From assembly GCA_965231005.1 (NCBI GenBank), contig OZ246405.1:610709-674708 (forward strand): 64,000 nucleotides of DNA, given 5' to 3'. The notes below the pieces were generated by a model. The model did not search any database. It saw nothing but the letters and a program-made list of their open reading frames with translations, and was not told the origin of the DNA. This document shows, piece after piece, positions 8,531 to 30,271 of this stretch (position 1 is the first letter of the stretch; every line of letters begins with the position of its first letter). A program made the position numbers and the translations under genes. Source of the stretch: an uncultured Gammaproteobacteria bacterium (lineage in GTDB: Bacteria; Patescibacteriota; Patescibacteriia; Magasanikbacterales; UBA922).

Positions 8531-8532
8531 AG

Positions 8533-10644: not shown

Positions 10645-10648
10645 TTGC

Positions 10649-11416: not shown

Positions 11417-11418
11417 AA

Positions 11419-12701: not shown

Positions 12702-12837
12702 GTCCTTCATTTAATTGGGGAAATCAGCTATACTATAGTTAATTAGTTAATTGGTTGACTAGCAAATTAGGCTATAAAATTTTTGCTTGAAAATTAATTG
12801 ACTAATTACCATTTTACAAATTAACAGATTAACCAAT

Positions 12838-13437: not shown

Positions 13438-13538
13438 TTTAGTTAAATGGTTGATTGGTTAATTAGTTGATTAGTAAGAAGAATCATTACAATATCCCCA
13501 ATAAACCAATTAACAAATACACAAATTAACCAGTACGT

Positions 13539-13865
13539 ATGTCGAAAAATCAAACTCCTTTTCTTGAAGAATTTATCATAAATGTTCTCGAAGAAAACGG
13601 CATTAAAGATTTAACTCAAGAACAAAAGAATGTATACATTCCAGAATTTTCTTTGCGTGTGTATAGAAGAATGGGGGACACGCTTATTTCAGAATTGGAC
13701 GACAAACAACTTGATCAACTTTCAGATTTACTCAGCGATCCAAAAGCAACGCCAGAAACATGGTATCAGTTTTGGCAAGCAAGCATTGATGATTTTACAA
13801 AGCAGTTTATGAATGTCCTTATGGAATTCAGATCTGATGTTAGTTCAGCATTGGTGGCAGCATAG
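13539..13865 (+). CDS. hypothetical acidic protein
   Basis: 108-aa ORF of host-like composition. No recognisable motif. Confidence 0.5.
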   Translation: MSKNQTPFLEEFIINVLEENGIKDLTQEQKNVYIPEFSLRVYRRMGDTLISELDDKQLDQLSDLLSDPKATPETWYQFWQASIDDFTKQFMNVLMEFRSDVSSALVAA

Positions 13866-13869
13866 ATAT

Positions 13870-14067
13870 ATGTCCACAACAGTTCATCCAAAAGATAAAG
13901 ATACTAACAAACGTAATAAACGTTTGAATATTTTGATTGATGAATTACACAAAGAATTACGAGCAGTCCAAAAAGATGCGATTAGTCTCAGAATGAGTGC
14001 ACAAAAAGTTGTAGACAAGCAAAACATGAAGCACGTATTAGAGAAATTATTAGACAATGGTTCATAG
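13870..14067 (+). CDS. small coiled-coil hypothetical protein
   Basis: Start chosen at ATG 13870 (MSTTVHPKDKDTNKRNKRLNILIDELHKELRAVQKD...). The ORF-track start at 13813 would overlap the previous gene. Confidence 0.4.
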   Translation: MSTTVHPKDKDTNKRNKRLNILIDELHKELRAVQKDAISLRMSAQKVVDKQNMKHVLEKLLDNGS

Positions 14068-14083
14068 AATCATTCTTTTAACT

Positions 14084-17000
14084 ATGAGTCCAGATGCAAA
14101 CAATGTAGTCGAGTTATTTCCTGAAAATGAATATGGTCCTGATCGAGGACCTGTTAGTGATGAACAAAAAGAAGCCAATCGTAAGGCAAAAGGTGAGCTT
14201 GGTGATATTTTGAGAAAACTAGAAGATCTCCAATCATTGCGCGATAAAGTTGAAACAACACTTATTGAAGATGTTGAAGCACTTATTCAGCATATTAATA
14301 ATAAGGAATATCACGATGAAGTTGTTGTTCAAGTAAAAGAACTTCGAGAAAAACTCGACGAAATTAATAAAAAAATGGAAGGGGTTTCAAAGTCGATTGA
14401 AACACGAGAAGTGCGAAAGCAACGAGAGAGTTTTGAGTTTACAGTGTCAGATGTTCTTGATGTCGTCGGAAGAGATAAGCTGCGAAATATTATGGTTCAT
14501 TTTCCTGATATGAATGCAGGCGAGCGGCAGCAGGTGTTTACAGGACTTTTTGATCACCTGGATGAAGAACAATCCAAAAATTTAAATAGAGTAAGAAGAA
14601 AAAAAGCGTTCGAGGTGTTTGAACCTTTTTTTCAAACTGCAAAACAAAAAAAAGCATTGGACGAAGCAAAGCGCGCACCAAATGATCAAGTGAGAGTGAA
14701 ACTATTTGAAGCAGCAGGGCTTATTGAAGATGAGACTGACAGAGAAAACGTGCTTCATACACTTTCAGAAATTTCTTTTTCTGATGATGACAATAAAGCA
14801 TTTATTAAAACATGGAAAGATAATATGGCCTTGCAAGCGCTTGATTCTGTTGAGTTTTATGAATATGGTGCTGCAGAGCAAAAAGTATTAGAACTTGCAG
14901 CTATAGAGGCAAAAAAAGGAAAAAAGAAAAAGAAATATAAACAAACCAGTCTAAAACAAAAGTTTGTAAATCTTGGAAAAGGAATAAAAAATTTGGCAGT
15001 TGCAGCTGGACAGCATGTTAAAAAAGAGTGGTGGGCTATGGCTCCAGCTGCGACATTGGGTCTTGTTGCAAGACACGCTGCATTGTCAACAACTCCTGAT
15101 TTTTATGCAAAGGCACTTGAATTAACAGGGGATGAATCTCAGTCTGCATTTTTAGCAGCTGGTGGTGCAGCAGCACTTGGGACATATGCACTTGCAGAAC
15201 ATGGGATTCGAGCATTGAAAACTCGTCTTTCCGTAAAGCCTGACAAAGCATTTGCAGAAGTTTCTGGTTTGGCAAAAGACATGTACGTCTCTGATCAGAA
15301 AAAGGGTGGAGAATGGGTCCTTGCAGGACATATTAGTCATATATTGCAACATGGAGGAAAAGAAGGACAGCAAACACATGAACGGCATGTAGAAGTCCTC
15401 AAAGTAATTGCAAAAGAATTGAGAAAAAATGGAGAAAAAGTTGAAGCAAATAGTGAGTTTATGAAAGCAGCACTACTTGCTATTGATGTAAAGGATAGAA
15501 AACGTGGTGGACAGTCAATTCTTTCAGAAAAATACCAGTCTCTTGGATTTATTCGTCGGACTATTGCAGAGGTTCGCGATCAATTTTATACAAAAAAGTG
15601 GAAAGACATTGGTGTTGGTGGTTCTGCGTTACAATGGATGTCCGGTGCTGCATTACATACATTACACAAAGGCTTGATTGGTGGAACAATTGCATGGCCA
15701 ATGCAGCGACCAGAAATTTTTGGTTTGTTTAGTGAGCGATTGGCAGCACGCTTTGGTGCAGCTGCAGTACCTGGCTGGTTACAAGAATTAGCAACAAAAA
15801 GAGGGGAACAAAAAGAAGATAAATGGGAAATTGAGAGAAAACGTCTTGAAAAAGCAGTAAGTCCTGAAGCATATGGAAAATTAACTTTATATAAAGCAAC
15901 AAAAGTTTCAGAAGATCAATTGTTAGATATTCAAAGAGAAATCACAGAATTGAATTATTACATTAGCACCTGGAGTGATGTAAGCTCTCTCTCATCAGAT
16001 GGGAATAAATTAAAGCGTGCTGGAAGAAAAATTACAACCAATGTGCGTAAACAATTTCAAAGTGATTTGCTCGATGTGTGGCCACGGTATAAAACTGCTG
16101 CACTTGGTTTGCATCAAGAATATGAACGACTATATGAAGAAAAAAGACAGGAACTGATTGAAAAACAGTTAGCAAAAGTTTCCAAAAGTTTGTCAGAGGC
16201 AGGCAAAACAAAGCAAAGAGAAAAAATGCAAGAAGCCTTGCCGGAAAAATTGAAGAAACGAGAGAAAAAGAGAAATAAGAATATTCCGAAAAAGACATTT
16301 GACATGAAATTGCCAGATGAAAAAACACCAACAGAGCGATTGTTAGGAAATTCAAAAGTTGAGGTTGCTGATAGAAGAAAAACATTAGTACAAGGGTTGA
16401 AAATGGGAATGCTTGCTGCAGCATTTGGAAAGGCATTTGATATGGCACGAGTTCATTTTCCACATATTTTTGATAGACCACCAGAAGTCATTCCGCATGG
16501 CGCGTTTGCAGGTTGGGATGAAGATCCATTTATTGATCATGATCGGTATGACCAATATGGAAATGAAATTTTTCCAGACGATGCGTATCCGTCACAAGGA
16601 GAAGAAGCATCTCCGCCTGCTGAAACACCACAAGAACCAACTGTTCCAAAAAGAGATAGGACAAAAGAAGAAATTCGACGTCTTGCAGGTTTGGGTGGTC
16701 GTTCTGGTCGAGTTGAAGATATTCCAGTGCAGGGCGAAGACGCACTCGTGACAGAAAAAGACGAAGTTGCAAAAGGAACAGGACTTGATTCAAGTAAGGA
16801 TGGAAGTGCTGCACTCATTGGTGAACCAAAAGAACCAACATGGGAAGAAAAGATTGCAGAGCGTGGAAGTCCTGCAGAATCACTTTCAAAAACAGAACAG
16901 TACATGAAATATTTGATGAGAGAAGAACCTAAAAAATATTCAAAAGCAGATTTTAAATTATTTCAACACATGCAATCTATTTTGGAAAAACAAAATGAAT

Positions 17001-17332
17001 TTGTTGGAATTCGAGGAGTTCAATTGGATTCGTATCTCAGAGGAAAGGGGATAGATATGTCACTTCCTGAGGTGAGAGAACAATTTGAAAAAGTAGTCAC
17101 ACAGCACTATGATACTGTTCAAACATTTGAAAAGGGGATTATGCGTGGAAATACTATGAATACGCTAGAGAAGAAAATGAGAGAAATTATGCTTGGTTCA
17201 GAAGCTCTTAGCACAGATACTGATTTGTCTCGTTTTACTGGTTGGTTTGAAAGGGAAGTCCTTCCTCTATTCAAAAAGGCTGTTCATGCTGCTGAAGTCC
17301 GAAAGAGTAAGGCTGCTTTTCCACTAGAATAA
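14084..17332 (+). CDS. large (about 1080 aa) coiled-coil/membrane-associated hypothetical protein
   Basis: Long ORF with charged Lys/Glu-rich coiled-coil stretches and central hydrophobic segments (WWAMAPAATLGLVARHAALS, FLAAGGAAALGTYALAEHGI). No NTPase or enzymatic motif was recognised. The start at 14084 or 14057 is ambiguous. Confidence 0.65.
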   Translation: MSPDANNVVELFPENEYGPDRGPVSDEQKEANRKAKGELGDILRKLEDLQSLRDKVETTLIEDVEALIQHINNKEYHDEVVVQVKELREKLDEINKKMEGVSKSIETREVRKQRESFEFTVSDVLDVVGRDKLRNIMVHFPDMNAGERQQVFTGLFDHLDEEQSKNLNRVRRKKAFEVFEPFFQTAKQKKALDEAKRAPNDQVRVKLFEAAGLIEDETDRENVLHTLSEISFSDDDNKAFIKTWKDNMALQALDSVEFYEYGAAEQKVLELAAIEAKKGKKKKKYKQTSLKQKFVNLGKGIKNLAVAAGQHVKKEWWAMAPAATLGLVARHAALSTTPDFYAKALELTGDESQSAFLAAGGAAALGTYALAEHGIRALKTRLSVKPDKAFAEVSGLAKDMYVSDQKKGGEWVLAGHISHILQHGGKEGQQTHERHVEVLKVIAKELRKNGEKVEANSEFMKAALLAIDVKDRKRGGQSILSEKYQSLGFIRRTIAEVRDQFYTKKWKDIGVGGSALQWMSGAALHTLHKGLIGGTIAWPMQRPEIFGLFSERLAARFGAAAVPGWLQELATKRGEQKEDKWEIERKRLEKAVSPEAYGKLTLYKATKVSEDQLLDIQREITELNYYISTWSDVSSLSSDGNKLKRAGRKITTNVRKQFQSDLLDVWPRYKTAALGLHQEYERLYEEKRQELIEKQLAKVSKSLSEAGKTKQREKMQEALPEKLKKREKKRNKNIPKKTFDMKLPDEKTPTERLLGNSKVEVADRRKTLVQGLKMGMLAAAFGKAFDMARVHFPHIFDRPPEVIPHGAFAGWDEDPFIDHDRYDQYGNEIFPDDAYPSQGEEASPPAETPQEPTVPKRDRTKEEIRRLAGLGGRSGRVEDIPVQGEDALVTEKDEVAKGTGLDSSKDGSAALIGEPKEPTWEEKIAERGSPAESLSKTEQYMKYLMREEPKKYSKADFKLFQHMQSILEKQNEFVGIRGVQLDSYLRGKGIDMSLPEVREQFEKVVTQHYDTVQTFEKGIMRGNTMNTLEKKMREIMLGSEALSTDTDLSRFTGWFEREVLPLFKKAVHAAEVRKSKAAFPLE

Positions 17333-17539
17333 AAAATTAGCCCTTTGACTCGTCACTTCGTTCCTCGCTAAGGACAAGCAAAAAACAAAGAACAAAAAAC
17401 AAGTATTTTAATTGGTATTATTCTTGAAAAAAATTACTAAAATGGCTTAAATAAGTCATTTTTTTCATTTCTTTATGTTTCTTACCTTTTTACTTTTTAG
17501 CATTTTCGCTTTTTTGCATTTTTAGTGATTGCAAAGTAC

Positions 17540-17568
17540 TTGACAAAATGGTAAAAATATGGTACAGT
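17540..17568 (+). promoter_or_regulatory. sigma70-type promoter (TTGACA-N17-TGgTACAGT) of the first G+C-rich operon
   Basis: TTGACA at 17540-17545 and TACAGT at 17563-17568, with a preceding TG. The 34-nt block 17537-17570 is 32/34 identical to 21721-21754. Confidence 0.65.
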
Positions 17569-17791
17569 TTGCTGTTTACAGTGCCCATATTGTGTATGAG
17601 CAGCATTTGTTGTGATCTCTTAGATTGTGACAGTTGCCAAGCAATATTTTTTCGCTGAAGTAAGCTAAAAAGTGCTGTAAAAAAATGCACATTACAAATA
17701 CATGATGCACCTATGTGTATTGGATTAGTCAATCAATGGATATTCTTTTTGCTGTCTTTTGATTGACTAACCCAATCAAGGAGGTGCAGTC

Positions 17792-19882
17792 ATGTCACCA
17801 GATCAGAAAAAACCTGATGGTGGTGCACATGGTAGTGCACCGCCGAAACGATCAACACTCGAACTTCATGCTGACAAGATCGTCAGCTTGGTCCAACAAG
17901 ACGGGCCAGAGGAGAACCCCATGACCGACAAGAAGACTGATACAACAACGCCGGGTCATGAGGTTCATGATTCGAATTCTGAAACCCCACCCCCGCTGCC
18001 AAGTGTGCTCGACTCGCTTGCTCCTGAGGACATAGCAAGAATAATAAGAGGAGAATCACAACCACTGCGAAGTGAATTGGTGCGATGTCCGAACTGTGGT
18101 GCTGTCTACCCTATGGATCAGGGAAAGGTCCAGGGTGGTTCTGAAAAGGATCAACAGTGTGTGTTGTGCCTTCATGAATTCACCCTCGGTGATGACAATG
18201 AAGCACAAGCAACAGCACAGTCTGAAACCCCACCACCAGTGCCTTCTTCGAACGTTCCGGCGGACAATGAGAAAATCCAATGTCCGAACTGCAAAACCAC
18301 ATTTCGGTCCATTGAAATCCTGCTTTGGGATCGCAATTACAAGTACGTCGTCTGCAGCCACGGATTCACCATCGATAACGACACTGAAGCACAAGCAACA
18401 GCACAGTCTGAAACCCCACCCCCACCCCCACTTCCGCTTCTCATTGGGGACAATGCCCCAGGTGGGAAGAACGTGACTTGCCCAAACTGCGATAAGGTCT
18501 ATTCACTGGATCCAGCTGACTTTGTAGGTGGTTTCCCGAACGTCTTTCAGTGCGCCCTATGCAATCATTGCTTCACTATCGATGATGAAACTGACGCACA
18601 GGATGACACACCACCTGCAATTCCGACCGCGCAGCAGCGTGCAGACAGAACAGGACTGACTGAGCCGTACAAGCCACTCGCCGACATCAAAGATCCAGAT
18701 GCTGATACGTCCACGATTCGTGAAACCATGCCAAGTCACCCGGGCCAAGCTCGTCGCGCTGAAAGCGATCACTACACGCAGGATGAACTTCCTCGCGTGG
18801 AAGATGAACGTGAAACACGGCAAGACCTTCCTGTTGTCACTGGCGATGATCAAGACACCAAGCCTGACATGGACGTTGTCAAAGCCGAAGACCTCGATGA
18901 AGACGATGCTGCTGAACTGGAAAAGGATGATGGCAAGGAAGCTGAAGAGCTGCCCCCGCCGATTTCAAGTCCCATGTTCAGTCCGGAACTGCGCAAACCA
19001 AACCCTGGTTTTCAGCTGCCTCCTCATCTCGAAGAGGTCGTTCGACTCTCTGCTGCTTCAACTCCCGATTCTCTTGCTTCCGGCGATGACGATCCATTCG
19101 GCGACGGCGGAGATCCCTTTGCTGGCCCAGGCACGAATCCCTTTGCTGTTGACGCAGATGATCCCTTCGGTGCTGAAGTTCCGTTCGGTCCAGGAGATGA
19201 TCTTGGGATGAAGGACGAAGACTACGGTGGTCCGAATGATTCTGTCGACGATGGTGATGAATTGCCTCCTGTCATGCCGGCTGATTCCAGTAAGGCGGCT
19301 CCCAAGCCGTCGCTGATTACTGGTTCCAGACCAAGGTTTCGTCCGACTGGACCTGTGCCTTCGGTTCACGATCAAGACGACAAAAGTGGCCCCCCGCCTC
19401 CTCGTCGTCAAGATCATCGAAAGACAATCCGAGTTCCACGTCATCGGCCGACTGCTCGTCCAGTGCCACCACCACCTCCTGGCCCGGCTCCCATTCGAAC
19501 GCCGACGCCTAGTGGTGGTTCACCCATTCCTGCATCTGCACCTGTTTCTACTCCGCCTCCGGCTGCGAGTACAACAGGACCGTCTGCTGCACCAACCCAG
19601 GCTGCTGCGGCTCCGCCCGCACAGTCACAACCGCCGGCTCCAACTGGGCCAGTGGTTGGTCCGACGGCATCAAGTGGCAGTGCTACTACACCGGTCAAGA
19701 CCAACAAGACCGTTGTGTGGATCATCGCCATTCTGATTGTTGCATGCCTGGCTCTCAATGCCTTTAGCGTGTGGCAAAGCAGAAACATCAGAAAGAACGT
19801 CATCGCGGTTCTGAAACATCGCGCTGGCATCCAAAAGGTCATTCAGGCTCCAATGCCGAAGACCAAGGGGGAAGAGAAATGA
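17792..19882 (+). CDS. G+C-rich tail-anchored protein with three MJ0042-like zinc-ribbon repeats and a long Pro/Asp-rich disordered region
   Basis: ATG at 17792 is preceded by AAGGAGGTG. There are three CPNC...(C/H)xxC units (aa 99-270). Long acidic and Pro-rich low-complexity stretches follow. A single C-terminal TM helix is VVWIIAILIVACLALNAFSVW. The stop overlaps the next start (ATGA at 19879-19882). Confidence 0.75.
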   Translation: MSPDQKKPDGGAHGSAPPKRSTLELHADKIVSLVQQDGPEENPMTDKKTDTTTPGHEVHDSNSETPPPLPSVLDSLAPEDIARIIRGESQPLRSELVRCPNCGAVYPMDQGKVQGGSEKDQQCVLCLHEFTLGDDNEAQATAQSETPPPVPSSNVPADNEKIQCPNCKTTFRSIEILLWDRNYKYVVCSHGFTIDNDTEAQATAQSETPPPPPLPLLIGDNAPGGKNVTCPNCDKVYSLDPADFVGGFPNVFQCALCNHCFTIDDETDAQDDTPPAIPTAQQRADRTGLTEPYKPLADIKDPDADTSTIRETMPSHPGQARRAESDHYTQDELPRVEDERETRQDLPVVTGDDQDTKPDMDVVKAEDLDEDDAAELEKDDGKEAEELPPPISSPMFSPELRKPNPGFQLPPHLEEVVRLSAASTPDSLASGDDDPFGDGGDPFAGPGTNPFAVDADDPFGAEVPFGPGDDLGMKDEDYGGPNDSVDDGDELPPVMPADSSKAAPKPSLITGSRPRFRPTGPVPSVHDQDDKSGPPPPRRQDHRKTIRVPRHRPTARPVPPPPPGPAPIRTPTPSGGSPIPASAPVSTPPPAASTTGPSAAPTQAAAAPPAQSQPPAPTGPVVGPTASSGSATTPVKTNKTVVWIIAILIVACLALNAFSVWQSRNIRKNVIAVLKHRAGIQKVIQAPMPKTKGEEK

Positions 19883-21558
19883 ATACGTTTATCAAGGTGC
19901 TACTCGCCATTCTCATCGGGGTTGTGGTCGCTGTGTCCGGCTACTTCGCATGGGAAACCATGAACACGAACAAGGCGCTCCTCGCTGAACTGAACAAGAC
20001 CGACAACGGTGCCCAGGAGGACACCAAGGTCAAGCCGGCGCCGAAGAAGTCGGCTGTCAAGAAAGCTGACAAGGCTTCCACGTCCCAGGCCAAGACGGCC
20101 GGCGACAAGAACGACCCCAAGAAGGTCGAGGAAGCTGCGAAGGCTGCCGAAGCCAAGAAGAAGGCCGAGGCCGAAGCTGCTGCCAAGGCTGCTGAAGCGA
20201 AGAAGAAGGCTGACGAAGCTCGCAACGACTGGGATGAAATCAACTCCCGTGGCGACGACCAACTCAGAGCTGAGAAGTTCGACGAAGCGTTCAAGACCTT
20301 CAAATCCTTGATCGGACACGAGCATCAGAATCATGGACTGGCTTACTACAACATCGCCTGCCTGTTCTCGGTGCAGTCTGTGTCAGACAAGCTCAAGGGC
20401 AAGAAGAAGGCGATTCGCAAGAGCAAGAAGCAAGCCCTCCACTACCTGGCTCAGGCCTGGGTAGCCGGCTACGACGACCTCGAATGGATGGAGAAAGACG
20501 AGGATCTCGATTCGATCCGCAAGACCCGCGGCTACAAAGAGATCAAGCGTCTGGCAGTGGAAAAGGGACTGGTTCGGCTCCCTGCGCCGGCCACCGAAGA
20601 CGTCGCCAAGAAGGCCAAGGATGAGCAGAAGGAACCCACGCCCAAGCTGACCGGCATCCACGCCCTGCGTGCCATGCCGATCAAGGGAGTTGCCGATTCT
20701 GACGAAGCCAGCAAGGCTGACAAGGACGCCAAGCGCATCGCCAACGCCAACGCCAAGAAGGTCAAGGGCAAGAAGGTTCGCAAAGGCAGCCGCGGCATCT
20801 CGTTCCTGGCCAAGGCTCGAGCCGAAGCCAAGCGGATGTACGCCAAGCTCCACAAGGACCAGAAGGCTCGTCGTGCAGCGCTCAACCGTGCGATCGCCCG
20901 ACTCAAGCGTGGCTACAAGCGCAAGAGCGATCTTGACAAGCAGGACGTTGACGACGAGATCGCAGAGCTCAAGCGAAAGGAGCAGGAACAGTCCGACGAC
21001 GAGGATCGGAAAGCCAAGGAAGAGGCCGAAAGGATGCTCGCCGACGGCAAGACCCAAGACGAGGTCAAGGCTATGTACGATGCTCTGGAGCGCAAGCAAC
21101 AGGCTCGTCGTGCAGCGCTCCTCAGCAAGATCGCGGACGAGCAAAGGCAGGCACGACAGCAGCGTCAGGATGATGCAGTCGACCTTCGCGATGAGATCGC
21201 CAAGCTGCGCGAAGCCGACAAAAAGGCTGACACGCAGTCCGCGGCAGCTGCCAAGGATCACGTGCAAGCCTTGTTCGACAAAGCGCAAGCCGCGACCAAC
21301 CGCGCCAACGCAAAGCGCGCGCGTCAACAGCGTCAGCGTGCGGCAGCGCCCTCGCGTCCGAGCTCGCCGCCCAGCCGTCCGGCTTCGGGTGGTTCGTCCA
21401 GCCTCGCACATGCGCCTGCGGCAGTTTCCAGCTGTCCGTATGGTGGAGACGAGGCCAACTGCGTCAAGAAGACGGTCGCGTACTTGACCAAGTTCGGTAC
21501 GCCCCTGGCCGATGCCAAGGGGAGTGCCAAGGCCAAGTGCAGCGCGCGCTGTCTGTAG
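19879..21558 (+). CDS. G+C-rich N-terminally anchored Lys/Ala-rich coiled-coil protein with a TPR-like segment and a C-terminal 4-Cys module
   Basis: Start ATG 19879 (MNTFIKVLLAILIGVVVAVSGYF is a TM anchor). A TPR-like block is YYNIACLFS...ALHYLAQAWVAGYDDLEWMEKDEDLDSIR. The C-terminus is CPYGGDEANCVKKTVAYLTKFGTPLADAKGSAKAKCSARCL. Confidence 0.72.
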   Translation: MNTFIKVLLAILIGVVVAVSGYFAWETMNTNKALLAELNKTDNGAQEDTKVKPAPKKSAVKKADKASTSQAKTAGDKNDPKKVEEAAKAAEAKKKAEAEAAAKAAEAKKKADEARNDWDEINSRGDDQLRAEKFDEAFKTFKSLIGHEHQNHGLAYYNIACLFSVQSVSDKLKGKKKAIRKSKKQALHYLAQAWVAGYDDLEWMEKDEDLDSIRKTRGYKEIKRLAVEKGLVRLPAPATEDVAKKAKDEQKEPTPKLTGIHALRAMPIKGVADSDEASKADKDAKRIANANAKKVKGKKVRKGSRGISFLAKARAEAKRMYAKLHKDQKARRAALNRAIARLKRGYKRKSDLDKQDVDDEIAELKRKEQEQSDDEDRKAKEEAERMLADGKTQDEVKAMYDALERKQQARRAALLSKIADEQRQARQQRQDDAVDLRDEIAKLREADKKADTQSAAAAKDHVQALFDKAQAATNRANAKRARQQRQRAAAPSRPSSPPSRPASGGSSSLAHAPAAVSSCPYGGDEANCVKKTVAYLTKFGTPLADAKGSAKAKCSARCL

Positions 21559-21578
21559 TCTGATCTGGTGAGAACCTG

Positions 21579-21660
21579 GCTTCCCGGTGCTCGTACGTTT
21601 ATTCGTACTTGCATCGGGAAGCCTCCTCACTTTCTTCTTTTTCTTGAAAAGAGGGGAAAG
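21579..21660 (+). terminator. 3' cassette module: G+C-rich hairpin followed by a CT/AG hairpin
   Basis: GGCTTCCCGGTGC...GCATCGGGAAGCC spans 21579-21623. CTTTCTTCTTTTTCTTGAAAAGAGGGGAAAG spans 21631-21660. Confidence 0.5.
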
Positions 21661-21723
21661 CAGGGAAAATACCTTATTTAAGCCAAAAAAGATAAGTTTT
21701 TATGGTCTATAAAGCCTAAATAC

Positions 21724-21752
21724 TTGACAAAATGGTCAAAATATGGTATAGT
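21724..21752 (+). promoter_or_regulatory. sigma70-type promoter (TTGACA-N17-TGgTATAGT), near-identical copy of the 17540 promoter
   Basis: TTGACA at 21724-21729 and TATAGT at 21747-21752, with an extended -10 TG. Confidence 0.65.
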
Positions 21753-21943
21753 TTCTGGTCAAAATTGATAAAATATATACCCTTATCTATTGGCGTGCCA
21801 GTGCATAATCCATGCAATATGCAGTGCGCGCGAGTGTGATAAGGTACAGAAAATGTACATCGTACATTCTTTGTGTGTCACACCGCTTTCCAGACGTTTT
21901 AACGTCATCCAACAGGTTCATTACATTACTACATCACTACAAC

Positions 21944-22086
21944 TGTTCGATCGGTAAACAAGTTCATAATATTTGTGTACTGCTTTACCGGTCGAACATT
22001 TCACATCGCCTTTCTGACCGGGGGCACAGTTAATTCCAAGGTACGTTACCAAGGAACAAATTGACTGCGCCTGGTTTTCTGGGCGA
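21944..22086 (+). promoter_or_regulatory. conserved structured 5' leader element, copy 1 (143 nt)
   Basis: It aligns along its length with 24885-25027. The long stem is GTTCGATCGGTAAA / TTTACCGGTCGAAC. Further hairpins have conserved stems and variable loops. It lies 27 nt upstream of the ATG at 22113. Confidence 0.6.
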
Positions 22087-22112
22087 CGTGAAACAACAGA
22101 AGGAGGTGCGCA

Positions 22113-23402
22113 ATGGCGTACGCCGTTCGAAAAACCCGATCCGGGGGTGCCGGACAATACGTTTCAGTTTTTTCCGACCGTGCTGCGGTTCTCCGAAAAA
22201 TCGCGCGAGGGATGATCCGCAAGGGTGCGTTCATTCGCGTGGTTCCGGACACGGCTGCTACCAACGATGGCGAGAAGGCCGCAGTCAAGGCTGATCTGGA
22301 TAACGCGGATTTCGTGCTCATCGAGAACCATCCGCATTTCGCTGGCATCAACTTCCCGGCGCCTGCTGACGCTTCGGCTGCTGCGACTGCGGATGCTGCG
22401 GCCACCCGTGCGAATGCCAATGCTGCTGCGGCCAATGTGACCGTTGCGGAGGCTACTGCTGCTCAGGCTCAAACCGAAGCCGACGCTGCTAACGCTCGTG
22501 CCAACGCTGCTGATGCCGCCACTGCTCAGGCCAACGCCGAGGCTACTGCTGCTCAGGCTCGTGTCGACGTTGCCAACGCTGCTGCTGCTCAGGCCAACGC
22601 CGAGGCTACTGCTGCTCAGGCTGCTGGGGATGCTGACGCTCAAGTTGCTGCTGCAGAGGCTGTTGCGGAGGCTGCTGCTGCTCAGGCCGATGCTGCTCAG
22701 GCACATGCCGACGCGGTTCAGGCTGCTGCGGATGCTGCTCAGGCTGCTGCGGATGCTGCTGACGCTGCTACCCAGGCTGGTGCTGCTGCCGGTCAGGCTC
22801 TGATCGCTACCAGTCAAGCTCGGGATGCTGCTGCTGAGGCTGAGGCTGAGGCGCTCGAGGCACAGGCCGATGCGGACGATGCTGCTGCCTTTGCTCAGGC
22901 TCAGGCCGACGAGCGGGCCAATCGCCGTTCGGTTCGGTTCGTCGCGTGGCTGCGTCGCAACTGGAAGAAGGTTCTGCTGGCTCTGCTGGTTCTCCTCCTT
23001 CTCGGTTGCGTGTGGTTCTTCTGGAGCAACATCAAGGCCCTGGTCACGGGGGGTGGTGGTTCGCCGCCGCCTTCGGTGGTGAACCCGCCGACCCCACCGA
23101 CGCCGCCCGTTCCGACGCCGCCCGTTCCGCCGCCGCCGGCTGCGACTCCGGTCGTTCCGCCGCCGACGGTGACGCCTCCGCCACCGCCCGCGACTCCGCC
23201 GGTTTCGCCGACGGTCACGCCTCCGCCGACCCCGCCGACTTCGGGGGGCACGGCAGCGCCGACTGGACAGCCTGGCTGTCCGTTCGGTGTGGGGTACACG
23301 GACTGTTACACCAAGACGGTGGCCTACCTGGTCAGCCATGGTGTGGCGACTTCGGACGCGCAGGACAAGGCGCGCGAGAAGTGCGGACCGCGTTGCAGGT
23401 GA
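22113..23402 (+). CDS. G+C-rich Ala-rich repeat protein with a central TM helix, a Pro/Thr-rich linker and a C-terminal 4-Cys module
   Basis: ATG is preceded by AAGGAGGTG. Repeats of the AAAQANAEATAAQA type occur. TM helix WKKVLLALLVLLLLGCVWFFW. A PPTPPTPPVPTPPVPPPP linker follows. The C-terminus is CPFGVGYTDCYTKTVAYLVSHGVATSDAQDKAREKCGPRCR. Confidence 0.72.
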   Translation: MAYAVRKTRSGGAGQYVSVFSDRAAVLRKIARGMIRKGAFIRVVPDTAATNDGEKAAVKADLDNADFVLIENHPHFAGINFPAPADASAAATADAAATRANANAAAANVTVAEATAAQAQTEADAANARANAADAATAQANAEATAAQARVDVANAAAAQANAEATAAQAAGDADAQVAAAEAVAEAAAAQADAAQAHADAVQAAADAAQAAADAADAATQAGAAAGQALIATSQARDAAAEAEAEALEAQADADDAAAFAQAQADERANRRSVRFVAWLRRNWKKVLLALLVLLLLGCVWFFWSNIKALVTGGGGSPPPSVVNPPTPPTPPVPTPPVPPPPAATPVVPPPTVTPPPPPATPPVSPTVTPPPTPPTSGGTAAPTGQPGCPFGVGYTDCYTKTVAYLVSHGVATSDAQDKAREKCGPRCR

Positions 23403-23410
23403 TGTAGCCT

Positions 23411-23500
23411 GTTGGAGGGAAGCCCGCTACCGGCGCATGCATTCGTGTGTGTGTCCGGTAGCCCTCCAACCGCTTTCTTTTATAAAAGAGAAAGAGGTTG
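23411..23500 (+). terminator. 3' cassette module: G+C-rich hairpin plus an overlapping CT/AG hairpin
   Basis: GTTGGAGGG (23411-23419) pairs with CCCTCCAAC (23462-23470). CCAACCGCTTTCTTTT...AAAAGAGAAAGAGGTTGG (23465-23500) reuses the 3' arm, so the two structures are mutually exclusive. Confidence 0.5.
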
Positions 23501-23824
23501 GGGGAATACAAAATTAGAAATTGGAAATTAGGGATTAAGTGTATTGACATATTGAGTAATAGAGAAAAGAAATTTTCTTTAGTACTCAGGGTGTCATGTA
23601 GACATTATTGTAAAATTACAATGTGTCTCGTGTCCTGATTAGACAGGTTCATTATAATTTAGTTGAAGAATAACTATCTGGTGGGTAAAAAGATAATATA
23701 CATATGTTACTTTTTTTCTCACCAGATAGTGGCACGTGCCGCTTGTTTCTTCGTCGCCCTTGGGGCATTTCACAAATGGCCCCATCGGTGAGGAGGGGCA
23801 AGGCAACAACAACAGGAGGACGCG

Positions 23825-24724
23825 ATGAACATCCGTCTCGTTTCGTTCATGATCGTCGCATCGGTGACGGTCGGTTTCATTTCCATCAACTCATTCGCGC
23901 AGGCACCGGCCGACTACCCAGCCGTTCGCGACGATGCGCACAAGGGTGCTTCGCTCGCCGAGTCCAACGCCAAGCGCCTGACCGCCCTGGAGAAGCGGAT
24001 CAAGCGGCTCAAGCGCGCCAAGGCTGCGGCCAAGGCCAAGCACACGGCCAACCCGACCCCCGCCAACAACGTCGCTCTGAAGGCCGCGGTCCGCGCGCTC
24101 GACGAGGCCAAGAAGGCAGGTCTGTCCATGTGCGCCCTGAAGACTGGCGAGGATTTCCGGCACTGCATCGACGTCGTGGAAGGCAAGGTGTTCGAGGTGG
24201 AGAAGGACTCCATCCGGATGGCCGCGCTGCTCGCAGTCGGCTGCATCGTGAAGGAGAACAAGTCCACAGATCCTTCCAAGGGTTCGAAAAAGGGCGCATC
24301 CATCACGACCACCGAGCTCGTCTGCGACAAGGACAAGGCCAAGAAGGCGCCGCGCTGCATCCGGTTCAAGCGCTTCAGCAAGCACGCGCACACCTACTTC
24401 GACGTCGGCGGTGACAACTGCAAGGAAGAAGACAGCAACCCGCTGCCCAAGAAGCCGGCGACTCCGCCCAAGCCCAAGGCCGAACCGTGGTCCAAGGGCA
24501 AGCGTTTGCTGGCCAGCGCTGGCATGTGCCTGCTGGCCGGTGGTGTGCTCGCTGTTCCTGGTTACGTCATCGGCGACGCCATCGAGGGCGGTCACTGGGA
24601 GACCAATCCGGAGACCGGCAACGACGACTGGTATGCGCCCAAGGGTCCGCTCGGTGCTGGCATCGGCGGTCTGACCGGCTGCCTCAGCGCGTTCGCGGGC
24701 ACATGGAGTGCGACGAGCGAGTAG
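23825..24724 (+). CDS. G+C-rich secreted/membrane protein, function unknown
   Basis: ATG is preceded by AGGAGG. Signal peptide MNIRLVSFMIVASVTVGFISINSFAQA. Lys/Ala-rich helix. Several Cys residues. C-terminal hydrophobic Gly-rich segments (LLASAGMCLLAGGVLAVPGYVIG; GAGIGGLTGCLSAFAG). Confidence 0.68.
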   Translation: MNIRLVSFMIVASVTVGFISINSFAQAPADYPAVRDDAHKGASLAESNAKRLTALEKRIKRLKRAKAAAKAKHTANPTPANNVALKAAVRALDEAKKAGLSMCALKTGEDFRHCIDVVEGKVFEVEKDSIRMAALLAVGCIVKENKSTDPSKGSKKGASITTTELVCDKDKAKKAPRCIRFKRFSKHAHTYFDVGGDNCKEEDSNPLPKKPATPPKPKAEPWSKGKRLLASAGMCLLAGGVLAVPGYVIGDAIEGGHWETNPETGNDDWYAPKGPLGAGIGGLTGCLSAFAGTWSATSE

Positions 24725-24748
24725 CCTTTCTTCAACTGCTGAATCTGT

Positions 24749-24826
24749 CGGGGGTTGGTAGCATGTTCATTCATGTCTGTCAACCCCCGTCGGAATATCT
24801 TTCTCTTTGTAAAAAGGGAGAGATGA
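24749..24826 (+). terminator. 3' cassette module: G+C-rich hairpin followed by a CT/AG hairpin
   Basis: CGGGGGTTG (24749-24757) pairs with CAACCCCCG (24781-24789). ATCTTTCTCTTTGTAAAAAGGGAGAGAT spans about 24797-24826. Confidence 0.5.
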
Positions 24827-24884
24827 ACGATTATTGTTCATTACAATTGAGAAACTACTACAGAAACATCTTGAATACCTTTTG

Positions 24885-25027
24885 TGTTCGATCGGTAAAC
24901 AAGTACATAACATTTGTGTACTGCTTTACCGGTCGGACATTTCCACATCGCCTTTTTGACCGGGGGCACAGTTAATCCGTGGCGTGTTGCCGCGGACCAA
25001 ATTGACTGCGCCTGAGAAATTGGGCGA
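24885..25027 (+). promoter_or_regulatory. conserved structured 5' leader element, copy 2 (143 nt)
   Basis: Homologous to 21944-22086. The stem substitution A to G keeps pairing as G-U. One hairpin is replaced by CCGTGGC-GTGTT-GCCGCGG. It lies 44 nt upstream of the ATG at 25072. Confidence 0.6.
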
Positions 25028-25071
25028 TTGTGGAATGATTCGGGCGAGACCCGAGAAAAGAGAGGTAACTC

Positions 25072-28000
25072 ATGAACAGCAAGCTCAACACGATTTCCGT
25101 TTGTTTCGTGGCGCTGATGATCGTTTTCGGGTGCAGCCCGGACGCGAGCTACAAGCCCAACGACCCCAAGAACCCCAACCCGGCCCGCAAGGCCGATGCC
25201 AACAACAGCGACACCAGCAGCGCGGATGCGGGTTCGAGCGCGGATACCGGTCAGCCGACCGATCCGTGCGCCGATCCCAAGTTCTGCAACGATGGCAAGG
25301 TCTGCACGGCCGACACCTGCAAGGACGGCAAGTGCAAGCACACCATCGACGCGACGCTCTGTGATGACGGCAACCCCTGCACACATGACCTGTGTGACGA
25401 CCTGGGGATCTGTGTGAACAAGGCTCACGAAGGTTCGTGCCAGGACGGGAATGCCTGTACTGTGGGTGATCATTGCAAGAATGGCACCTGCCAGTCGGGA
25501 AAGAACATGCCCTGTCCCAACGAGAACTCGTGTGTCATCGCAACCTGCAACCCGAAAGAAGGCAAGTGCAACTACGAGCCCAAGAGCGGTGACTGCAACG
25601 ACGGCAACAAGTGCACGGTTGGCGATTTCTGCATCAACCAGAAGTGCAAGAGCGGTTTCAAGAAGTTGGACTGTGATGACAAGAACGTGTGCACGACTGA
25701 CAGCTGCAATCCAGAAGACGGTTGTGTTCACAAGCCGATCGACCTTCCCTGCAGCGACAACAGCTCGTGTACCATCTCGGATAAGTGCAAGGACGGAAAA
25801 TGCGTGGGCCAGGTTGTCAACTGCGACGACAAGAACCCGTGCACGACCGACTCGTGCGATCCGGCGGCGCCCCCGGGCAAGGCATGCAAGCACGTGAACA
25901 ACACCAGCGAGTGCGACGACGGCAACAAGTGCACGTCCGGCGACGTTTGCCAGGATGGTCAGTGTAAGAAGGGAACCACGTCGGTCGATTGCGACGACGG
26001 GAACCCGTGCACTACCAATTCCTGCGACGCCAAGGTCGGCTGCCAGAAGCTCAACAACAACAACTCGTGCGACGACGGCAACAACTGCACCATCAATGAC
26101 AAGTGCTTTAACGGCAAGTGCAACTCCACTACCAAGAAGTGTGGCGACAGCAACAAGTGCGTCACCAACACGTGCGACCAGGCAACTGGCGCGTGTGTGA
26201 AAAAGGAGCTGTGCGACGACGGCAAGGCCTGCACCGAAAACACGTGCGACATCAACACCGGCAAGTGCGAAAACCCTGACAAGAAGTGCGACGACGGCAA
26301 GGCCTGCACCAAGGATAGCTGCAACACCACCACGGGCAAGTGCGAGTACGAGATGATCGTTGGTGCGAACTGCTTCTGCAAGTTCGACTCCAACTGTGAC
26401 GACGGAAACGAGTGCACTGTCAGCGCATGCGATAAGGCGACTGGCAAATGCGCGCTCGCGAAGAAGTACAGCGGGACCTCGTGTGACGACGGGAACCCGT
26501 GCACCACCTCGGACAAGTGCGACCCCAAGACCGGCAAGTGCTCGTCGGCAAAGGCCACGGCCTGCGACGACGGGAACCCCTGCACGGACGACTCCTGCGA
26601 CCCCACGGTCGTTGGCGGTTGTGTGGCGGTGAAGAACAACAAGCTGTGTGACGACGGTGACGCGTGCACCAAGGGTGATATCTGCCTGGACGGCGCGTGT
26701 AACCCCGGCAAGGCCCCGGTCTGCGACGACGGCAACATCTGCACGGATGACAGCTGTGACTCGAAGCTCGGATGCAAGAACACGGCCAACTCGGCCAGCT
26801 GCTCGGATGGGAGCGCCTGCACCTCAAACGACAAGTGCGAGGGCGGGAGCTGCAAGAGCGTTGCGGTGAAATGCGACGACTCCAACCCCTGTACCGACGA
26901 TAGCTGCGACGCGAAGGTCGGCTGCAAGTACGCCAAGAACACCAAGCCGTGTAACGACGGTGACGAGTGTACCATCAGCGAGGTGTGCAAAGACGGCAAG
27001 TGTGGTTCTGGCAAGGCCAAGTCGTGCGACGACAACAAGAAGTGTACCATCGACTCGTGCGACAAGGACAAGGGCTGCCAGCACAAGCAGATTTCCTCGG
27101 CGACCTGCTGCGCTTCGGACGCTGAGTGCGACGATAAAAAGCCGTGCACGGTGGACAAGTGCGATCCGAAGGAAGGTTGCAAGAACACCAAGAAGCTCTG
27201 CTCGGACAACAACCAGTGCACCGACGACGTGTGTGATCCCCAGTCTGGAGATTGCAAGCACACGAAGTTCAGTGGACCGGCCTGCGACGACGGCAACAGT
27301 TGTACCAAATCCGAGAAGTGCGAAAAGGGCAAGTGCGAAGCTGGCTTTACCATCAAGTGCAACGACAACAAACCCTGCACCAAGGATACGTGCGACACCA
27401 AGGGCGGATGCGTCTTCACCAAGACCGTGGATCCCTGCGACGACGGGGACGCGTGTACGAATGGAGACAAGTGCGCCAATGGCGAGTGCGTGTCTGGCAA
27501 GCAGATCGTCTGCGACGACAACAAGGTCTGCACGACCGACAGCTGTGACTCCAAGAAGGGGTGCGTGTTCGCGAACAATTCGGATGCCTGTACGGACGGA
27601 AACGCCTGTACACCGAATGACGTCTGCAAGGACGGCAAGTGCTCGTCGCAGCCTGAGAACTGTGACGACGCGAACGCGTGTACCAACGACAGTTGTGACA
27701 AGAGCAAGGGCTGCAAGCACATCAACAACACCAAGGTCTGCAACGACGGCAACAAGTGTACGGACAACGGAGTCTGCAGTGGCGGCGCCTGCAAGCCGGG
27801 CAAAGCCATCAACTGCGACGACGGCAAGAAGTGCACGACGGATAGCTGTGACCCGACCACGGGCAAGTGCAAGAACGTGGCGCTGGTGTGCGATGACGAC
27901 GCCTGTACGGATGGCGATGGCAAGTGTGACGAGAGCACGGGCAAGTGTGCAGTGGGTCTTCCCAAGAACTGCACTGACACCGACGTGTGTACCAAGAATT

Positions 28001-28593
28001 TCTGCTCGGAAGGAACCTGCAAGGTCTCTCCGAACTGCGATGACGGGAACGCATGCACGGCTGATAGCTGTGACCCAAAGAAGCCCGAGAAGGATCAGTG
28101 TTCGCACGTCCCGATCTCGGGTTGCAAGTCGGTCGAGGTCAAGCTCTCCGTGGTTTTTTCTGAGATGTTCAAGATGGAAGCCGCACCCAAGGGTGGCAAC
28201 TACGTCCGGTTCTTCGTCAAGAAGTGCGAGGCCAAGGCTGCTGACGGCTCGTCCGTCATGTTGCTCAAGCCTGGCTCCTTCTACGGAGGCGCTGAGATCA
28301 AGAACAGCTCGAAGCTCGAGTACACCAATCCTGCAAAGGTCCAGGACTTCGTGCAGATCCCGAAGAATGCCTGCTGCATCAACATCGTAGGGTACCAAAG
28401 CAGTAAGATCTCCAATCCTTACGGGGACTCGAAGATCTGGGCTTTCAGTACGACTCCCAATACCAAGACCCACAACATGGAGCCGGTCCTCACGACCAGC
28501 AATGGACTGACGTACAAGTTCACGTTGAAAGACGTCCATGACAACGGTGTGGGGGGATACGACGCGTGCAACAGCGAAGTCATCTCCAAGTAG
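25072..28593 (+). CDS. G+C-rich giant Cys-rich repeat lipoprotein (CDDGNxCTxDxC-type repeats, roughly forty copies) with a distinct C-terminal domain
   Basis: The N-terminus MNSKLNTISVCFVALMIVFGC is a probable lipoprotein signal. From about aa 66 to 985 there are ~24-aa units in two alternating flavours: CDDxNxCTxDxCDxxxGCxH and CxDGNxCTxxDxCxxGxC. The last ~180 aa are non-repetitive. Confidence 0.85.
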   Translation: MNSKLNTISVCFVALMIVFGCSPDASYKPNDPKNPNPARKADANNSDTSSADAGSSADTGQPTDPCADPKFCNDGKVCTADTCKDGKCKHTIDATLCDDGNPCTHDLCDDLGICVNKAHEGSCQDGNACTVGDHCKNGTCQSGKNMPCPNENSCVIATCNPKEGKCNYEPKSGDCNDGNKCTVGDFCINQKCKSGFKKLDCDDKNVCTTDSCNPEDGCVHKPIDLPCSDNSSCTISDKCKDGKCVGQVVNCDDKNPCTTDSCDPAAPPGKACKHVNNTSECDDGNKCTSGDVCQDGQCKKGTTSVDCDDGNPCTTNSCDAKVGCQKLNNNNSCDDGNNCTINDKCFNGKCNSTTKKCGDSNKCVTNTCDQATGACVKKELCDDGKACTENTCDINTGKCENPDKKCDDGKACTKDSCNTTTGKCEYEMIVGANCFCKFDSNCDDGNECTVSACDKATGKCALAKKYSGTSCDDGNPCTTSDKCDPKTGKCSSAKATACDDGNPCTDDSCDPTVVGGCVAVKNNKLCDDGDACTKGDICLDGACNPGKAPVCDDGNICTDDSCDSKLGCKNTANSASCSDGSACTSNDKCEGGSCKSVAVKCDDSNPCTDDSCDAKVGCKYAKNTKPCNDGDECTISEVCKDGKCGSGKAKSCDDNKKCTIDSCDKDKGCQHKQISSATCCASDAECDDKKPCTVDKCDPKEGCKNTKKLCSDNNQCTDDVCDPQSGDCKHTKFSGPACDDGNSCTKSEKCEKGKCEAGFTIKCNDNKPCTKDTCDTKGGCVFTKTVDPCDDGDACTNGDKCANGECVSGKQIVCDDNKVCTTDSCDSKKGCVFANNSDACTDGNACTPNDVCKDGKCSSQPENCDDANACTNDSCDKSKGCKHINNTKVCNDGNKCTDNGVCSGGACKPGKAINCDDGKKCTTDSCDPTTGKCKNVALVCDDDACTDGDGKCDESTGKCAVGLPKNCTDTDVCTKNFCSEGTCKVSPNCDDGNACTADSCDPKKPEKDQCSHVPISGCKSVEVKLSVVFSEMFKMEAAPKGGNYVRFFVKKCEAKAADGSSVMLLKPGSFYGGAEIKNSSKLEYTNPAKVQDFVQIPKNACCINIVGYQSSKISNPYGDSKIWAFSTTPNTKTHNMEPVLTTSNGLTYKFTLKDVHDNGVGGYDACNSEVISK

Positions 28594-28640
28594 TTCTCAA
28601 GAAAATGATCACTCCCTCCTGCGCAATGTGATCTGCCGTG

Positions 28641-28712
28641 GACGGGCTCGAGCCTGAAACTCGAGTCCGTCCCGGCCGCGCAACTCCGAATATGATTCAC
28701 GTCTATTCGGAG
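28641..28712 (+). terminator. two G+C-rich hairpins closing the island
   Basis: GACGGGCTCGAG-CCTGAAA-CTCGAGTCCGTC spans 28641-28671. CTCCGAATA-...-TATTCGGAG spans 28684-28712. Confidence 0.45.
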
Positions 28713-28831: not shown

Positions 28832-28837
28832 GTGAAT

Positions 28838-30271
28838 ATGAAATCGCCAAATTTCTTATCTTATTTTTCACACAACCAGCTTAAAAAAACACATGTACTT
28901 GGTGTCTCTTTTATTATTATAATAATGACAGCCGCCCTTTTACTATTTTGGGATATATATCCTCTAGCAATTATATTCCTCATAGGATTAGTAGGAATAT
29001 CCACATTTGCTCTAAAACCAGAGTGGGGATTGTACAGTGTTCTCTTTCTTGGACTATTTCATGGATGGGTCATAGATTTTTCTACATATCAGAGCGTCAA
29101 ACATATTCCATATCTTCCTCAGATCAATGCTCCTTTGGTTGATTTCTTTGCGATTGTTTTATTCATTGGAGTTTTTCTTTTATATTTATTTCAATTTCAA
29201 AAATTAGCTATTTTGAAACGTCTAAGACACATCAAAACAGGAATAGTTATATATATTCTTTTTCTTATCACAGCACTTGCAGCTGTTTTTTTTGCATTTA
29301 ATAATTTTTTTACACCAAGTATAAAATATTTTATGCGACCGCTGGTGTTTGTGTTTGTTTTGTATTGGCTCTTGCCAATTATTCTTATTAGAACAAAAAA
29401 ACAATTTTCATCTGTAATGAAACTATGGTTCTGGACTGGTATTGGCATTGCAATATTTGGTTTGATATCTTTATTTGTTCTTGGGCAAACAGGATGGATT
29501 CGTGTTGTTCCATTTGGCATAAAAGGGTTTGCCCCACTTGGATACAATCATAATCAACTTGCAGAAGTATTAATTTCTTTATTTCCTGCTGGACTATTTC
29601 TTTTCTTACGAAGTTTTTCAAAAGAAGAAAAAAGATTGTATGGTTTTGGAACATTTTTTATTATTATCATTGCACTCCTAACACTTTCTCGGGCTGCTTG
29701 GGCTGCAGTACTTGTACAAGTAGGCTTTCTCTTTTGGTTTTTCCGTTCAGCAGTGCGTCCATTCATGTATAAATTTCAAAAGATAACCACGCTATTATTG
29801 ATAGCAATTATTCCAGCTATTCTTTACATGAGTGTTTTTCTTGGATCGTCCATTGTAAAAAGTTCAACAAATGCCCGAGTGGAAGCAACAAAAATCGCAT
29901 TATTTTATACTGTTCGTTCTCCAGTCGTTGGATATGGTCCTGGTATGTTTGGCTATGTTATGGATGACACGTTTTTGTACACGCTCGAATTTGGAGAGTC
30001 GCTTGATGCACATGGGTTTATTCAAAAAGTCATGTTAGAAGAAGGATTTCTTGGCTTGCTGTTCTTTGTTGGTTTTTTGGGTTGGATATTGTGGTATATA
30101 TATCAGGCAAGAGAACATGGCATGCAAAGAGATCTTGTTGAGGTATTATTTGTCATGGCAATAGGAGCAATTATTTTTCAACTATTTAATACGTCCTATT
30201 TTAATTCTGTAATGTGGTTGCCACTTGGGGTGGCCACTGCTGGAACGCTTCTTTTAAAAAATGATTCCTAG
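28838..30271 (+). CDS. O-antigen ligase/polymerase (Wzy_C) family membrane protein
   Basis: About 10-12 TM helices. It carries a Wzy_C-type loop motif (ALLTLSRAAWAAVLVQ). Confidence 0.75.
   Translation: MKSPNFLSYFSHNQLKKTHVLGVSFIIIIMTAALLLFWDIYPLAIIFLIGLVGISTFALKPEWGLYSVLFLGLFHGWVIDFSTYQSVKHIPYLPQINAPLVDFFAIVLFIGVFLLYLFQFQKLAILKRLRHIKTGIVIYILFLITALAAVFFAFNNFFTPSIKYFMRPLVFVFVLYWLLPIILIRTKKQFSSVMKLWFWTGIGIAIFGLISLFVLGQTGWIRVVPFGIKGFAPLGYNHNQLAEVLISLFPAGLFLFLRSFSKEEKRLYGFGTFFIIIIALLTLSRAAWAAVLVQVGFLFWFFRSAVRPFMYKFQKITTLLLIAIIPAILYMSVFLGSSIVKSSTNARVEATKIALFYTVRSPVVGYGPGMFGYVMDDTFLYTLEFGESLDAHGFIQKVMLEEGFLGLLFFVGFLGWILWYIYQAREHGMQRDLVEVLFVMAIGAIIFQLFNTSYFNSVMWLPLGVATAGTLLLKNDS

Follow-up and report, generated by a model that had tools for sequence, protein, structure and literature searches.

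What leads two neighbouring bacterial genes, whose products otherwise differ, to end in the same short cysteine-containing segment? The question arises in a 64,000-nt stretch of contig OZ246405.1 (assembly GCA_965231005.1; the whole stretch analysed here is called the window), in which the open reading frames (ORFs) p559 and p429, both part of a GC-rich gene island, terminate in a shared four-cysteine tail of 41 amino acids (aa), hereafter the module. An original prediction, made from the sequence before any database search, had quoted the tails of both products, aligned them without gaps and described the two proteins as otherwise unrelated. On re-reading, the quoted 41-residue tails of both ORF products matched exactly, and the features concerned are:

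19879-21558, plus strand: ORF p559, 559 aa, final residues CPYGGDEANCVKKTVAYLTKFGTPLADAKGSAKAKCSARCL
22113-23402, plus strand: ORF p429, 429 aa, final residues CPFGVGYTDCYTKTVAYLVSHGVATSDAQDKAREKCGPRCR
21433..21558, plus strand: module copy 1, 41 aa plus stop, C-terminus of p559 (codons 21433-21555)
23277..23402, plus strand: module copy 2, 41 aa plus stop, C-terminus of p429 (codons 23277-23399)

The module and its conservation

The two tails align without gaps and are identical at 18 of 41 positions, including all four cysteines, compared with a maximum of 12 identities across 200,000 shuffles of the ungapped 41-mer. When the full-length proteins were compared by BLASTP, the sole significant high-scoring segment pair (HSP) was the C-terminal 47 aa (43% identity, ungapped, E = 1e-9; the runner-up HSP had E = 2), in line with the proteins being unrelated outside this region. 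The invariant positions are Cys2, Pro3, Gly5, Cys11, the run K14-T-V-A-Y-L19, Gly23, Asp28, Ala29, Ala33, Lys36, Cys37, Arg40 and Cys41, and the cysteine pattern is C-x8-C-x25-C-x3-C. Both copies are equally long, with the stop codon one residue past the last Cys.

The nucleotide sequences of the copies have diverged considerably more than this resemblance might suggest: they are 55% identical, third codon positions are alike in 17 of 41 codons, and different codons encode nine of the 18 conserved residues. By the Nei-Gojobori method, nonsynonymous divergence (dN) is ~0.53 and synonymous divergence (dS) is ~1.7, a saturated value, giving a dN/dS of ~0.3. Synonymous saturation together with the retained residues points to an old duplication whose protein sequence has been maintained, and this conservation of the protein in turn confirms the reading frame. 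A six-frame hidden Markov model (HMM) scan of the window found no third copy, for a total of two. As judged from these comparisons, the module is real, statistically solid and confined to two paralogous tails within one foreign island.

The module had initially gone unrecognised, and it remains so after database searches, since no Pfam or NCBIfam model matched the tails even at E<=10. Beyond these two proteins, the similarity was recovered neither by a profile run against 1.84 billion representative proteins nor in scans of DNA, and the module does not hold up as a family. The profile search returned nine matches at E<=1e-3, one of them p559 itself at 4e-21, a result to be read with the caveat that a 42-position profile built from two sequences is blind to distant relatives in so large a database. 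The other eight matches, to ankyrin, TPR-like, immunoglobulin-like and other repeat proteins, were rejected as summed partial matches, none covering the four cysteines. A 743-aa secreted protein with Cys-rich repeats (P0006) contains a repeated VAYLKSIGESDKDAK that fits VAYLxx[IF]Gx4DAK with identical spacing; its surrounding Cys spacing differs, and it was judged a chance match whose score is raised by six near-identical repeats. A word-index homologue search with the two-module alignment gave 0 candidates, a result that carries no weight since the query was so short that p559 itself also was missed, and a search with full-length p559 found no homologue except p559, whose exact sequence is present in a public protein collection (P0001).

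Searches of nucleotide and structure databases gave the same picture. Back-translated patterns run against GTDB species genomes and JGI metagenome contigs yielded no relative confirmed by tblastn. The degenerate DNA core pattern, encoding C-x2-K-T-[VI]-A-[YF]-x-x3-G-x4-D-A, had no match in viral contigs, and its one match in a JGI contig fell in a transposase contig with in-frame stops and was dismissed as chance. For plasmids and phages, tblastn returned only matches at E>=9. A synteny-guided search of the contigs (GC 0.69-0.71) of the two closest relatives of p1173, a Cys-rich product of the same island, found no module, and there was no sequence match in the PDB. Recurrence in independent lineages was thus found in none of the representative proteins, GTDB genomes, JGI metagenomes, viral contigs, plasmids, phages or PDB entries. 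On this sequence evidence, the module is a lineage-private duplication inside one island, with no detectable relative elsewhere.

Predicted topology and fold

The original prediction had placed both modules outside the cell, each behind a transmembrane (TM) anchor and a long Pro/Ser/Thr-rich linker. The parts of the two proteins that bear on this are:

19885..19941, plus strand: p559 TM helix or signal-anchor (or signal peptide), residues 3-21, hydropathy 2.43
20410..20544, plus strand: p559 TPR_END_plus domain, residues 178-222 (NF047558, 37.9 bits versus a cut-off of 32, E = 1.2e-9)
21340..21432, plus strand: p559 Pro/Ser-rich linker, residues ~488-518 (~30 aa), read from the sequence
22971..23027, plus strand: p429 TM helix, residues 287-305, with six Lys/Arg in the preceding 15 residues and one after
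23028..23276, plus strand: p429 Pro/Thr/Val-rich spacer, ~83 aa (repeat family D13)

The description of an anchor followed by a long linker fits p429 but not p559, where the anchor lies ~500 residues upstream of the module and the linker spans only ~30 aa. In p429, a ~90-aa N-terminal region is followed by ~180 residues of Ala-rich repeats, the TM helix, the spacer and the module; the ~285 residues that precede the TM helix are predicted to be cytoplasmic. The gene has a Shine-Dalgarno sequence (GAAGGAGG) upstream of 22113. In p559, ~465 residues rich in Lys, Ala and Glu, including the TPR end-of-group domain, separate the TM helix from the linker; a ribosome-binding site (AAGGGGGA) precedes position 19879, and the start ATG overlaps the stop codon of the upstream gene p696 as ATGA. 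A position outside the cytoplasm, at the end of a stalk, is nevertheless predicted for both copies, from the charge distribution around the membrane helix (the positive-inside rule) for p429 and from the N-terminal signal-anchor for p559.

These layouts are reminiscent of two known envelope proteins. In TonB, one TM helix is followed by a Pro-rich spacer, long and rigid, that holds a small C-terminal domain away from the membrane, and the C-terminal half of p429 likewise has a TM helix (residues 287-305), a Pro-rich spacer of ~83 residues and a small tip. The tip differs, being 41 aa in p429 and ~90 aa in TonB, and neither p429 nor its tail alone matches TonB_C; in addition, ~285 residues precede the TM helix of p429, and the window yielded no ExbBD-like genes. 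In TolA, an N-terminal TM anchor leads into a long region rich in Lys, Ala and Glu, with a small domain at the C-terminus, and each of these parts has a counterpart in p559, where the Lys/Ala/Glu-rich region is predicted to be helical. In contrast to TolA, p559 lacks domain III (by Pfam) and has the extra TPR end-of-group domain, and no tol-pal genes were identified nearby. By these sequence comparisons, the resemblance of p429 and p559 to TonB and TolA is one of architecture only.

Prediction of the module structure with AlphaFold2, run separately for each copy with the other copy as the only alignment row, gave the same compact two-helix hairpin for both, with a mean predicted local distance difference test (pLDDT) score of 86.3 for copy 1 and 89.5 for copy 2. 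In module numbering, the helices are predicted at residues 8-21 and 26-40 in copy 1 and at 8-21 and 26-41 in copy 2, such that an N-terminal coil carrying C-P-(Y/F)-G leads into the first helix, a four-residue turn at the invariant Gly23 follows, and the second helix completes the module. The models put Cys2 in the coil ahead of helix 1 and, from the helix boundaries, Cys41 one helical turn beyond Cys37. In this arrangement the four cysteines are placed such that they could close the hairpin at its open end. An inner Cys11-Cys37 bridge would be geometrically natural because the antiparallel register pairs these positions (11+37 ~ 21+26), and Cys2-Cys41 would then be the outer pair, an assignment reached by elimination only. 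The small residues Ala29 and Ala33 of helix 2 probably face V16, Y18 and L19 of helix 1, and the resulting core may be too thin for stability without cross-links. Outside the module, p559 and p429 each have one other Cys, that of p429 inside the TM helix, so the module carries a self-contained even set of four.

Comparison of the models with the PDB by Foldseek gave weak matches only, and no fold relative was found. One weak match is a walnut vicilin-derived hairpin (9q1l_C); two others (9evt_U and 7pkq_v) appear to be 127-128-residue chains of the mitoribosome small subunit. Cysteine-stapled helical hairpins are known in other settings. In the CHCH or twin-CX9C proteins and the twin-CX3C small Tim proteins, a helix-turn-helix is held by two inter-helix disulfides and occupies the oxidising mitochondrial intermembrane space. 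The predicted module would share with them a hairpin stapled by two disulfides, but its spacing is C-x8-C and C-x3-C, no Pfam CHCH model matches it at E<=10, and its context is bacterial. Plant alpha-hairpinins are ~35-45 residues long, with two antiparallel helices, a short loop, four cysteines that staple the helices and a CXXXC in helix 2, all features that the module is predicted to share; for the module, the two helices and loop come from the AlphaFold2 prediction only. Their definition calls for a CXXXC motif in each of the two helices (PMC7191063). The module has a single one, C37-x3-C41; the remaining two cysteines are spaced as C2-x8-C11, and C2 falls outside helix 1. In alpha-hairpinins the disulfides run Cys1-Cys4 and Cys2-Cys3; for the module, connectivity is proposed from the helix register only. 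Moreover, alpha-hairpinins are plant defence peptides cut from precursors, whereas the module is the tail of bacterial membrane-anchored proteins, and there is no sequence similarity between them. If the models are correct, the module would work in the manner of disulfide-stapled helix-loop-helix mini-domains while belonging to neither the alpha-hairpinins nor the CHCH proteins.

Possible functions of the tail

What might such a tail do? The genes that encode it are each preceded by a promoter in an AT-rich spacer:

17540..17568, plus strand: sigma-70-like promoter 1, TTGACA-17-TACAGT with TG before the -10, upstream of the p696/p559 operon
21724..21752, plus strand: sigma-70-like promoter 2, TTGACA-17-TATAGT with TG before the -10, upstream of p429

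These are the region's two best sigma-70-like promoters, each ahead of a transcription unit with a module gene. They are near-identical and have an extended -10 (TTGACAAAATGGTnAAAATATGGTAnAGT), and their 25-nt core occurs at these two sites only in the window. We favour, tentatively and at somewhat less than even chances, a lineage-private hairpin clamped by two disulfides that acts as a docking tip common to two stalk proteins, which would be co-regulated in view of their promoters. An ancient duplication would have given a ~41-residue mini-domain to two island envelope proteins that have nothing else in common, and the mini-domain would fold as an antiparallel two-helix hairpin with its open end clamped by Cys11-Cys37 on the inside and Cys2-Cys41 on the outside. 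The stalk of p429 would be a TonB-like polyproline spacer that holds the tip far from the cytoplasmic membrane, and that of p559 a TolA-like Lys/Ala/Glu-rich region followed by the short Pro/Ser linker. Mounted on these two different stalks, the hairpin would let both engage the same partner, be it each other, the Cys-rich p1173 or another island product, or the surface of another cell. This reading of the hairpin as a tip for docking draws on the position of the two genes, which occupy neighbouring transcription units, each led by a strong promoter nearly identical to that of the other. As for the disulfides, island products can be expected to fold in an oxidising compartment given that p1173 has 156 Cys in repeats of an extracellular type.

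Several points weigh against this reading. With two sequences only, there is no covariation or wider conservation to draw on for the proposed function. AlphaFold2 may be overconfident for helical hairpins when given a 42-residue peptide and a two-row alignment, and the first Cys pair (C-x8-C) is not wholly inside helix 1.

The same cysteines could be put to other uses. A Cys4 site for Zn or a similar metal might hold the hairpin in place of disulfides, making the module a small metal-stabilised knuckle, possibly one that senses redox state or metal. In the predicted hairpin, all four invariant cysteines do come together at the same end, the CPxG turn resembles the turns of zinc knuckles, and the first gene of the island, p696, encodes genuine zinc ribbons. 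We nonetheless think this unlikely, as structural Zn(Cys)4 sites are unusual in the extracytoplasmic location predicted for the tails, the spacing C-x8-C...C-x3-C contains no CxxC pairs, and comparison of the tail with zinc-finger models was negative even at E<=10; neither the two CxxC motifs nor the CPxCG of zinc ribbons and knuckles is present, in contrast to the ribbons of p696. Alternatively, the module could serve in dimerisation or cross-linking, with a four-helix bundle or intermolecular Cys2/Cys41 disulfides tying p559 to p429, or forming homo-oligomers, at the stalk tips. The occurrence of the same tail on two adjoining, similarly promoted genes would be in keeping with such a role, as would the conserved Ala29/Ala33 face of helix 2 and V16/Y18/L19 face of helix 1, which probably leave little core for a monomer. 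Given that the AlphaFold2 monomer is already confident, we assign this option a similarly low likelihood to that of a metal site.

It is improbable that the tail is a functionless passenger, acquired when recombination copied the 3´ end of one gene, terminator included, to the other. The architecture of the 3´ flank is common to three island genes and no homologue was found anywhere else searched, as a passenger would predict, but synonymous sites are saturated while 18 of 41 residues and all four cysteines have been kept (dN/dS ~0.3), and the two copies have also stayed identical in length, their stop codons one residue beyond the last Cys, and have kept a confidently predicted fold. The original prediction had mentioned a sorting domain alongside a binding domain, and the strictly C-terminal position behind a low-complexity linker, in an island that looks Myxococcota-like, is where one would look for a signal of the MYXO-CTERM, PEP-CTERM or LPXTG kind, read by a dedicated enzyme for sorting or processing; the alpha-hairpinin-like shape also brings to mind a peptide released by proteolysis, as in plants. 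For a sorting signal, however, the last 41 residues lack a hydrophobic helix or basic tail, no NCBIfam or Pfam sorting-signal model (MYXO-CTERM, PEP-CTERM, LPXTG, GlyGly-CTERM) matches, and no sortase, exosortase or rhombosortase family was detected among the window ORFs scanned against Pfam, while a released peptide is at odds with the single CXXXC, which departs from the alpha-hairpinin Cys motif. We regard both forms of this idea as very improbable, and the evidence gathered lends no support to sorting among the suggested roles. A CaaX or prenylation motif was considered and rejected, because the sequence has Cys at -2 and -6 from the end and not at -4.

Returning to the docking tip, a bolder version, which we rate as quite unlikely, would make the module the shared "plug" of an apparatus for contact with a host or prey, built by a small-genome, low-GC bacterium out of genes taken over from a GC-rich, Myxococcota-like donor and each given a strong native promoter; both stalks would bind one partner-cell receptor or the p1173 adhesin. 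If so, the module would represent a new, minimal cell-surface docking domain. Were the less specific docking reading to prove true, the module would be a self-contained 41-residue extracellular domain with two disulfides and no database relatives, displayed on two kinds of stalk, and would be relevant to research on cell-surface display and to the engineering of mini-protein scaffolds. The practical weight is limited by the occurrence in one lineage only and by the lack of a phenotype tied to the module.

The gene island and its surroundings

The island spans ~11 kb (17750-28700) and comprises five plus-strand genes with a GC content of 54-66% and a GC content at third codon positions (GC3) of 0.45-0.84, compared with ~35% and 0.22-0.25 in the surrounding genome. 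The spacers between the island genes drop to 32-35% GC, such that the GC-rich segments are ORF-sized. The setting makes a broader point, namely that a genome of 35% GC has ORF-sized GC-rich genes under consensus promoters that are AT-rich. Features other than those of p559 and p429 given above are:

17792..19882, plus strand: p696, three MJ0042-type zinc ribbons, a Pro-rich region and a C-terminal TM helix
21580..21621, plus strand: probable terminator of the p696/p559 operon, a GC-rich hairpin then a T-rich tract, read by eye and missed by a simple terminator scan
21945..22095, plus strand: structured leader of ~150 nt ahead of p429, ~90% identical to the p1173 leader at 24885-25040, with these two copies only in the window
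23825..24724, plus strand: p299, a signal peptide, eight Cys and a C-terminal hydrophobic segment, without the module
25072..28593, plus strand: p1173, a lipoprotein-like signal (..VFGC), 21 Dicty_CTDC Cys-rich repeats and 156 Cys, without the module

By sequence features, all five products look like envelope proteins. Thousands of relatives were found for p1173, the best of them 34-45% identical; the named ones are from Myxococcales, Deltaproteobacteria and Binatia metagenome-assembled genomes. Taken together with the MJ0042 fingers of p696 and the TPR-end domain of p559, these relatives suggest a Myxococcota-like donor, and the island looks foreign and Myxococcota-like. A chimeric assembly was rejected as the source of the GC-rich island, in view of the repeated GC alternation and of an ENA metagenome contig (ERZ930065 k127_29052) that is 100% identical to window positions 9879-22781 and spans the left island junction. 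That contig ends within the Ala-rich repeats of p429, a break in its assembly that the repeats account for.

Several island genes seem to be absent from public annotation or called wrongly in it. The exact products of 22113-23402 (p429), 23825-24724 and 25072-28593 are absent from a collection of 15 billion proteins in which p696 and p559 are present. The absence of p429 is likely due to gene callers picking a long antisense ORF (22164-23339, 391 aa). Since gene callers probably are misled in GC-rich DNA of this kind, protein-based surveys can miss copies of the module, and private domains in such islands are easily overlooked.

The zinc ribbons of p696 are each trailed by a near-identical EAQATAQSETPPP linker, seen in the DNA as an 83-nt direct repeat at 18156 and 18342. 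For the p429 and p1173 leaders, a long hairpin and a multi-stem domain are predicted (-61 kcal/mol for the pair) and no Rfam family matches; a role as a cis-regulatory RNA is conceivable for the leader, as is an origin as a small repeat element. The 3´ flanks at 21556-21660, 23400-23500 and 24722-24825 share a GC-rich stem-loop followed by a CTTTCTT(T)...AAAAGAG(A) T/A hairpin, on which the simple terminator scan also was silent.

A second GC-rich insert with a single gene lies at 4486-5423 in the window (ORF ~4593-5423, GC 58-64%) and repeats the pattern of the main island. Its ORF has no Pfam or plasmid match, and the insert follows immediately on a consensus promoter (TTGACA-17-TATACT), which itself overlaps the terminator hairpin of the upstream gene. 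A tRNA-Asp(GTC) gene (6723-6799) and a standard transfer-messenger RNA (tmRNA) gene (8530-8929, 137.7 bits) are found ~9 kb upstream of the island and do not adjoin it; the predicted tag of the tmRNA is unusually long (ANLVNRVKSAIANAFSTPALATAVA). Host-side genes in 40198-42199, 28832-30271 and 47291-51483 include one for an extracytoplasmic function (ECF)-type sigma factor followed by one for a DUF5667 protein, and three for Wzy_C (O-antigen-ligase-like) proteins, one of which carries TPR repeats. Together with the 1.23-Mb length of the contig, DUF11 repeats and numerous glycosyltransferases, the Wzy_C-TPR fusions and the pairing of DUF5667 with an ECF sigma factor may hint, as no more than a guess, at a host of the candidate-phyla type with a small genome. 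With many GT4 glycosyltransferases in addition, the region is rich in surface-glycan genes.

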